33,115 bases of DNA from Escherichia coli (lineage in GTDB: Bacteria > Pseudomonadota > Gammaproteobacteria > Enterobacterales > Enterobacteriaceae), in the NCBI RefSeq assembly GCF_003334385.1, contig NZ_QOWN01000049.1; one strand, given 5' to 3'. Below, one piece after another: positions 5,843 to 6,367 of the stretch (position 1 is the first letter of the stretch; each line of letters opens with the position of its first letter). Position numbers and translations under genes: made by a program. Under the pieces are notes generated by a model, which was not told the DNA's origin, made no database searches, and saw nothing but the letters and a program-made list of their open reading frames with translations.

Positions 5843-6367
5843 ATGCGGAAGTCAATTGCCGATAAAGAGTTATCTGACACACAAGCCCTTCAGGAAAACG
5901 ACAGCATCACCGAATCCGTTGGCGCGGCAAACGACGATGAACACCAAGAGGAAAAGAAAAAACGCACCTACAAAAAAGGGGCAACCTTGCGACTGGATGG
6001 CCCGGTAGCCGGACTTTGCTCACTTGAAAAAGGGGCAGCCTATATCGGGTTGACAAAAGCTGCATTGCGCGTGGCGCTTCAGCGAAATCAGATGCCTGGA
6101 CACAAGACCCGTTCAAACCCTGAAGATGAAAATTCGGATGGCGTGTGGTGGTTTAACGCCAGAGAGTGGGACAAGCTGGCTGACGAACTACCAGAATGCG
6201 AGCCGCCAGAATGGCACAACTGGAAAAGCTACTGGACATACGACCGACAGAAAAGAAAGTTTTCCCCGGCAAACAAAGAAGACTGCCAGACCATCAATGG
6301 AAAGCGGGTTTACACAGGAAGAAAGTCAAAACTGGAGCAACACCAATACAGTGGAGGCAACCAGTGA
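5843..6367 (+). CDS. Cox/Apl-like excisionase-regulator (extended, 174 aa)
   Basis: Central segment AYIGLTKAALRVALQRNQMPGHKTR...GVWWFNAREWDKLA resembles the P2 Cox HTH region; RBS agagga before ATG 5843; divergent from C. About twice the length of P2 Cox; an internal TTG start (~6 nt after aagggg) is possible. Confidence 0.6.
   Translation: MRKSIADKELSDTQALQENDSITESVGAANDDEHQEEKKKRTYKKGATLRLDGPVAGLCSLEKGAAYIGLTKAALRVALQRNQMPGHKTRSNPEDENSDGVWWFNAREWDKLADELPECEPPEWHNWKSYWTYDRQKRKFSPANKEDCQTINGKRVYTGRKSKLEQHQYSGGNQ

Follow-up and report, generated by a model that had tools for sequence, protein, structure and literature searches.

A long-form Cox family protein in a P2-like prophage inserted beside dmsA in Escherichia coli

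The window, by which we mean the whole stretch of 33,115 nucleotides of Escherichia coli DNA that was analysed, contains a P2-like (Peduoviridae-type) prophage inserted beside dmsA. This assignment is based on the gene order and on the gene content. The dmsA gene (1592-4036, minus strand) flanks the prophage on the integrase side and is followed by a P2-type tyrosine integrase (4336..5328, minus strand; PHROG 1 and a RefSeq CDS), a P2 C-type immunity repressor gene (5398..5739, minus strand; PHROG 147 and a RefSeq CDS), and the long-form cox gene (5843..6367, plus strand), which the repressor gene faces. Farther along the window we found genes for a gpA-like origin nickase, a portal protein, a large terminase, and a major capsid protein. 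The repressor is a helix-turn-helix protein of 113 aa, and its relatives carry the annotation 'immunity repressor protein GpC'. The order int(-), C(-), switch region, cox(+) is that of P2, and the gap between C and cox is about 103 nt (104 nt from ATG to ATG) versus 115 nt in P2, for which the P2 paper describes a C-cox switch region of about 110 bp. The gene in question is therefore the first one of the early operon, faces C, and lies near int, which is the position of a Cox-family gene. A search for a second attachment site inside the window yielded a single 13-mer repeat at the chance level, so the far end of the prophage is probably outside the window.

The early region further includes genes for a 3'-5' exonuclease (8487-9077), a protein named 'ParE family toxin-like protein' in RefSeq (about 9087-9314), and a DNA adenine methylase (9311-10291). 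At about 6383, just 3' of cox, homology with most of the related E. coli prophages breaks off, and at least 80% of the query 5300-6900 was covered in only 6 of the 354 matching genomes. A minus-strand ORF of 151 aa at 6452-6907 belongs to PHROG 28512, a family annotated as of unknown function, with no NCBIfam or PADLOC match. The interval 6383-7171, directly 3' of cox, looks like a variable cargo slot.

To describe the switch region, we combined a promoter scan, a repeat search, and alignments of related loci. The scan identified a Pe-like early promoter, TTGACA-18-TATCCT (5724..5753, plus strand), whose -35 element overlaps the start codon of C, as in P2, and whose TTGAC is invariant in the alignment. 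No minus-strand Pc promoter was called by the consensus scan. Read on the minus strand (5833-5841), the cox ribosome-binding site gives TTGCTATCCT, a sequence of the form TGnTATCCT. By eye, no other TAnnnT was seen on this strand between the start codons of C and cox; the sequence is invariant in the family, and its TATCCT is the hexamer that also makes up the Pe -10 at 5748-5753. Judging by its sequence, it is a possible Pc -10 of the extended -10 form.

The sequence TTCACCAnAnGnTGA occurs twice, at 5732-5746 and 5764-5778 (32 bp apart), on either side of the Pe -10, and both copies are candidate C operators. In relatives, the same positions are occupied by GATAACC, TGTCGAA, or GTTAnC-type half-sites, and such differences fit heteroimmune phages. 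The copies look like C operators that define different immunity types.

Between these candidate operators and the cox ribosome-binding site there is an array of ACAA boxes (5784..5826, plus strand), roughly one helical turn (10 bp) apart, which is a candidate Cox-binding array. It is comprised of ACAA at 5784, 5794, and 5814, CCAA at 5823, and a degenerate box at 5804. A chain of four exact ACAA boxes was reached in 1 of 2000 shuffles for the related locus L001 and in none of 2000 for L044, while the array in the window was not significant. RDF sites are described as direct repeats one helical turn apart (PMC7498355). The candidate boxes are unlike the cox-box of P2, TTAAA(G/C)NCA.

A second candidate Cox site is on the attachment side, by the int stop codon (4298..4335, plus strand), and contains AAATCAAAACAA, GCAA at 4315 and 4325, and ACAA at 4332. 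The 12-mer AAATCAAAACAA at 4298-4309 is identical to positions 5786-5797 in the switch region, and none of 500 dinucleotide shuffles reached that length. In L001, both copies read AAGCCAAAACA instead of AAATCAAAACAA; the word shared by the switch and att sides in this locus was matched in 18 of 500 shuffles, and in three of the five lineages tested the shared word was not significant. The P2 annotation likewise places a Cox site between the att core and int. As the 12-mer is shared and both copies have changed together in L001, the pattern is suggestive, and only suggestive, of one protein reading both the switch and the att-side sites. Next to the att-side array, at 4338-4359, AGTCAATGGAC is repeated directly as AGTTTATGGAC at a distance of 11 bp, and the pair overlaps the 3' end of int; in P2, the P'-arm sites of Int are in the equivalent position. 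The word TGGACAGTTTATGGACAC is kept in the Salmonella relatives examined, and a Yersinia relative has it with one substitution (TTTGTGG).

The cox gene is an ATG-initiated ORF of 174 codons and a stop, identified in the ORF list and in RefSeq: in E. coli G1/2, the RefSeq CDS covers exactly the same 525 nt and is named 'hypothetical protein' (WP_001232123.1). Its product matches PHROG 23196 over the full length (residues 1-174 against profile positions 1-174, E = 9.7e-121). In Pfam, residues 58-129 match positions 11-86 of the 87 in the Phage_Cox model (PF10743, E = 2.1e-5), and this domain has been precomputed for 61 of the 65 homologous clusters. PHROG 1831, a Cox-like family of 121 positions, matches residues 29-134. 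NCBIfam and PADLOC searches gave no match for the long-form protein. The matched region corresponds to a Cox/Xis-type winged helix-turn-helix core (residues 58-129; 6014..6229, plus strand). The AlphaFold model of the full-length protein is poor (pLDDT 54), and in a model of residues 45-174 built on 63 sequences the core has pLDDT of 82-93, with the predicted core adopting a winged helix-turn-helix fold like that of P2 Cox (PDB 4LHF).

The sequence relationship to P2 Cox itself is distant. The core identity is only about 19-20%, and a profile comparison with hhalign produced a weak match with the probability of 9% over 47 columns (residues 65-111). A PDB sequence profile search did not retrieve 4LHF; it returned only NDUFA12 (E = 0.67), a match at the chance level, so that the link to P2 Cox required fold comparison. 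The segment responsible, PPEWHNWKSYWTY (residues 121-133, window 6203-6241), resembles PPEWHGWLNYINDY of the mitochondrial complex I subunit NDUFA12, almost certainly by chance. Nevertheless, the long-form protein is a Cox by sequence, by fold, and by gene position, and departs from the family only in not being a small protein, as it has 174 aa, against the size of about 80-91 residues taken as usual for a Cox. It does not belong to the Apl type of phage 186, which is paired with cII and with a repressor of the CI type (about 190 aa), since the adjacent repressor is the 113-aa C type, and the CI and C repressor types are distinct (PMC3448106). From the homology and the gene position we infer that the core, about residues 48-131, acts as P2 Cox does.

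The earlier note described a Cox-like protein about twice as long as P2 Cox, and this holds: P2 Cox has 91 aa, and the long form is 1.9 times as long. In the multiple alignment, the first residue of P2 Cox falls at about residue 45-51 of the long form and its last at about residue 131, which leaves an N-terminal addition of about 47 aa and a basic C-terminal one of about 43 aa. Thus, the acidic N-terminal and the basic/aromatic C-terminal flanks noted previously do exist, although they are shorter than the earlier figures of about 60 and about 70 aa, respectively. The Trp-rich stretch at residues 120-131, EPPEWHNWKSYW, belongs to the Cox domain, as it aligns with the W-containing C-terminal region of P2 Cox. 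The helical filament of P2 Cox, around which DNA wraps, is packed mainly through the C-terminal region of the protein (PMC3936717).

The closest named relatives are the protein of the UTI89 prophage PhiECO5 (WP_001204238) and those of phages vB_EcoM-569R5 and 705R2. These fall into PHROG 23196, are 83% identical to the long form considered here, and have the same locus layout. The UTI89 protein is named 'Cox family DNA-binding protein', and the equivalents in vB_EcoM-569R5, 705R2, and a P88-like record are named 'regulatory (cox family) protein'. Prophages of the UTI89 PhiECO5 type occupy the same insertion site beside dmsA as the window prophage; however, they are of another immunity type, with the half-sites GATAACC versus TTCACC in the window, their proteins differ in the linker and in the recognition-helix residues, and the DNA 3' of cox is unrelated. 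Nilsson et al. (2011) assigned PhiECO5 (UTI89) to a new immunity class and noted that the 'group 2' Cox proteins are larger than those of group 1.

A set of mid-length Cox proteins of about 120 aa (PHROG 1831), found in Peduovirus pro483, P24E6b, 11W, and Yersinia vB_YpM, shares the core, the motif PPEWHxWK, and an acidic N-extension. In these proteins, however, the N-extension is shorter (about 30 aa) and does not carry the MxxxIADKELSD tip, and the tail YWTYDR...KEDC...GKRVY...RKSKLEQ is absent. The Xis proteins of lambda, Pukovnik, and Tn916, as well as RdfS and Apl of 186, are of the same fold class as the predicted core; still, lambda Xis and the other winged-helix RDFs have no detectable sequence relationship to it, are 55-90 aa long, and lack an acidic N-extension. 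Lambda Xis carries an unstructured C-terminal tail past its winged helix (PMC3936717).

The additional length at the N-terminus raises the question of where translation starts. The ATG at 5843 is preceded by the Shine-Dalgarno sequence AAGAGGA (5830..5836, plus strand), 6 nt ahead of it, and by an in-frame stop codon TAG (5837-5839, plus strand) two codons upstream. We compared 40 related loci (two phage records and 38 IMG/VR contigs, 47-100% identical). The ATG is kept together with an AGAGGA or AGGAGGA ribosome-binding site in all 40, and the in-frame stop two codons upstream in 38. Since the overlap of the Pe -35 with C and the spacing of 104 nt match the P2 layout, this ATG corresponds in position to the start of P2 cox, with the additional codons located downstream of it. 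The earlier note had proposed that the true start might be internal, at a TTG after AAGGGG. Such an in-frame TTG is indeed present, at codon 49 (5987..5989, plus strand). Initiation there would leave 48 codons as an untranslated leader and yield a 126-residue protein with the N-terminus placed as in P2 Cox, which aligns from about residues 45-51, and a GGGG run is located 5 nt upstream. Yet among 26 distinct CDSs, codon 49 is TTG in only 9, being TTA in 10, CTG in 5, CTT in 1, and CTA in 1. The 17 replacements include near-identical pairs that differ only in TTG versus TTA, and the encoded Leu is nearly invariant. Ten of the 26 have no in-frame ATG, GTG, or TTG at all between codon 2 and codon 80. 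The AAGGGG or AAGGAG run preceding codon 49 is explained by conserved Lys-Lys-Gly codons, the region upstream of the TTG keeps its frame across indels with pN/pS below 1 in most pairs, and there is no variation in the upstream ATG, which follows a strong ribosome-binding site. Moreover, even the 126-aa product would not be a Cox of normal length. Hence, the internal TTG is not a conserved feature, and as the true start of this gene it can hardly be credited. A weaker version, in which this phage makes the full-length protein and a minor truncated form from TTG 5987, draws on the presence of the TTG and the Shine-Dalgarno-like run in the window and in 8 of 25 other distinct relatives. It is improbable as well, if somewhat less so, since the TTG is lost between near-identical relatives and thus is not under selection. 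The annotation is therefore settled: the 174-codon call is correct and should not be shortened, and the product should be named a Cox family protein rather than 'hypothetical'.

The N-extension is comprised of two parts with different patterns of conservation. Its tip (codons 1-12, MRKSIADKELSD; 5843..5878, plus strand) is shared throughout the family, all members of which open with M(R/Q)xxIA(D/E)(K/E)xLSD; M1, I5, A6, L10, and S11 are nearly invariant. The tip is followed by a variable acidic linker (codons 13-47; 5879..5983, plus strand), which ends in the basic patch KKKRTYKK (codons 38-45). The net charge is -8 for residues 1-37 and +7 for residues 38-50, which contain the patch. In-frame indels make the linkers differ by as much as about 22 codons, with pN of up to 0.7, and the family lengths range from 166 to 196 aa. 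By the Nei-Gojobori method, pN/pS is 0.3-1.2 for linker residues 13-44 and 0.0-0.5 for residues 45-57. AlphaFold gives residues 1-54 pLDDT below 50, and they are predicted to be disordered. No stop codon was found in the linker in any lineage examined; a random stretch of 48 codons stays open with the probability of about 0.10. By these sequence patterns and the structure model, the linker has the features of an acidic spacer that is translated, disordered, and under weak constraint. One difference was seen within the tip: codons 3-4 (5849-5854) are AAG TCA (Lys-Ser) in the window and in the related loci L003-L005, and GAC TTC (Asp-Phe) or similar in L006 and L007, which are 98-99% identical, and in nearly all other relatives. 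A 5-bp inversion (GACTT to AAGTC) together with one substitution would account for the difference.

The basic C-terminal extension (residues 130-174; 6230..6364, plus strand) has a net charge of +6 and six aromatic residues, and is predicted to form four short beta strands and a helix. Residues W131, Y133, R135, F140, K145, C148, and R160 are invariant. The Nei-Gojobori pN/pS is 0.05-0.55 for tail residues 132-166, compared with 0.03-0.32 for the core, so by sequence comparison the tail is under purifying selection about as strong as that on the core. In the model of residues 45-174 the tail has pLDDT of 56-66, that is, low confidence; the modelled tail matches no known fold, and its sequence has no match in Pfam, NCBIfam, or PDB.

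The long-form family includes 65 clusters at 90% identity, of 152-196 aa and mostly of 166-192 aa, from E. coli, Shigella, Salmonella, Yersinia, and Serratia. Together with their shorter relatives, these proteins form a graded series. Relatives of 100-112 aa lack extensions; those of 123-129 aa (pro483, an Arsenophonus element, P0076, and P0077) have the acidic N-extension only; a 167-aa protein (P0079) has a long acidic N-extension only; and relatives of 161-196 aa have both the N-extension and the C-tail. The family is already catalogued, as PHROG 23196, under the RefSeq name 'Cox family DNA-binding protein', and in PhiECO5 of UTI89. A literature search found no paper on the long-form Cox.

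The origin and the nature of the extensions can be read in several ways. The earlier note offered a fused or extended excisionase-regulator as the other option. The extended form is borne out by the conserved ATG, the conserved frame, and the selection on the C-tail, whereas no evidence of fusion was found. For a normal Cox joined to one or two independent genes or domains, one may point out that both extensions lie outside the Pfam Cox model and that the structure prediction sets the C-tail apart as a small beta unit. Against it, when 1.84 billion representative proteins were searched exhaustively with a profile, only 21 matched, and all of them are members of the long-form family, shorter Cox relatives, or fragments and frameshifts. 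The extensions have no match in Pfam, NCBIfam, PADLOC, or PDB, and the C-tail could not be aligned with the small ORFs 3' of cox in P2 (orf78) and pro483 (ORF4). We regard fusion as quite improbable. The graded lengths of the N-extension and the lack of similarity between the tail and the neighbouring ORFs speak for elongation in situ, inside a single Cox clade, rather than for the acquisition of foreign genes by fusion.

Another reading concerns the N-extension alone: it could be of little function as protein, with the tip being a nucleic-acid element overlapping codons 1-12 and the linker drifting almost neutrally. The element could be the Pc promoter or sequences upstream of it, a site for a regulator, or a hairpin of 5834-5840 with 5869-5875. 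The tip is indeed conserved at synonymous sites, with pS of 0.07-0.42 in codons 1-12 versus about 0.6 elsewhere. In the nucleotide alignment, ATTGC and GTTATCTGA are invariant within the tip and, of the synonymously conserved codons 5-12, TTA TCT is present in all nine sequences. As the synonymous sites are conserved too, the conservation of the tip may in part reflect a DNA or RNA constraint and not the function of the peptide. The resemblance of the TGnTATCCT described above to an extended -10 would fit such an element, and pN/pS of the linker reaches about 1 in distant pairs. On the other hand, the linker is acidic and open in all lineages, its pN/pS is 0.3-0.5 in most pairs, and the hairpin is no more stable than shuffled sequences (z from -0.2 to -1.6) and, being invariant, provides no covariation. 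We consider this reading possible, though doubtful; moreover, it is compatible with the long-form explanation and does not exclude it. As for the hairpin itself, GGATAGC (5834-5840), within the ribosome-binding site, can pair with GTTATCT (5869-5875, codons 9-11). The resulting 7-bp stem encloses the cox ATG and is invariant in all nine diverged relatives examined. The same topology was predicted in three diverged sequences, with z relative to shuffles of -0.2, -0.4, and -1.6. The stem could be a translational hairpin, an upstream element of Pc, or a protein-binding site.

Taken together, we find it highly probable that translation begins at the ATG at 5843 and runs through the whole ORF, giving a 174-residue long-form Cox, the product of the first early-operon gene of a P2-like prophage beside dmsA, with a core acting like P2 Cox and with both extensions being real parts of the protein whose role is most likely modulatory. 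The long-form Cox is real and fairly ordinary, and nothing suggests a new kind of system.

P2 Cox is a model case of one small winged-helix protein that serves as the repressor of the lysis-lysogeny switch, the directionality factor for excision, and an activator of a satellite phage, and it does all this by wrapping DNA around its filament. By analogy, the core of the long form would bind short direct-repeat arrays, with repeats about one helical turn apart, between C and cox, and when bound at the switch would shut off the repressor promoter. It would also bind beside the attachment core, directing Int towards excision. In this way, the long-form Cox would be both the lytic-side protein of the switch and a recombination directionality factor.

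What the extensions add to the long-form Cox is a matter of speculation, and we suppose that they most likely modulate DNA binding and oligomerisation of the core. The basic C-tail could add contacts with DNA or protein, since it directly follows the part that in P2 Cox drives the assembly of the filament. The acidic N-tail could act as an intramolecular brake or as an arm binding a partner, for example Int. A more specific proposal, which we put forward tentatively and would not expect to hold in full, is that the extensions constitute a built-in control module absent from the Cox, Apl, and Xis proteins characterised so far. In it, the basic beta unit at the C-terminus would extend or redirect the filament-forming, DNA-wrapping surface or would contact Int, the acidic disordered N-tail with its conserved tip would mask this surface or recruit a partner, and together they would time the commitment to excision.

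Whatever their exact role, the same core accompanied by two conserved extras, one of them beside the oligomerisation region of P2 Cox, gives the long-form family value as a set of natural variants with which the control of filament growth and of DNA specificity could be studied. The relatives P0012 and P0008 stand for two natural deletion forms. One is a 157-aa form without the last 16 residues, represented by 60 member sequences on 12 contigs. The other is a single 154-aa form, in which an in-frame deletion of 20 residues removes the basic patch and the first strand of the core. These two forms could serve as natural tests of the function of the tail.
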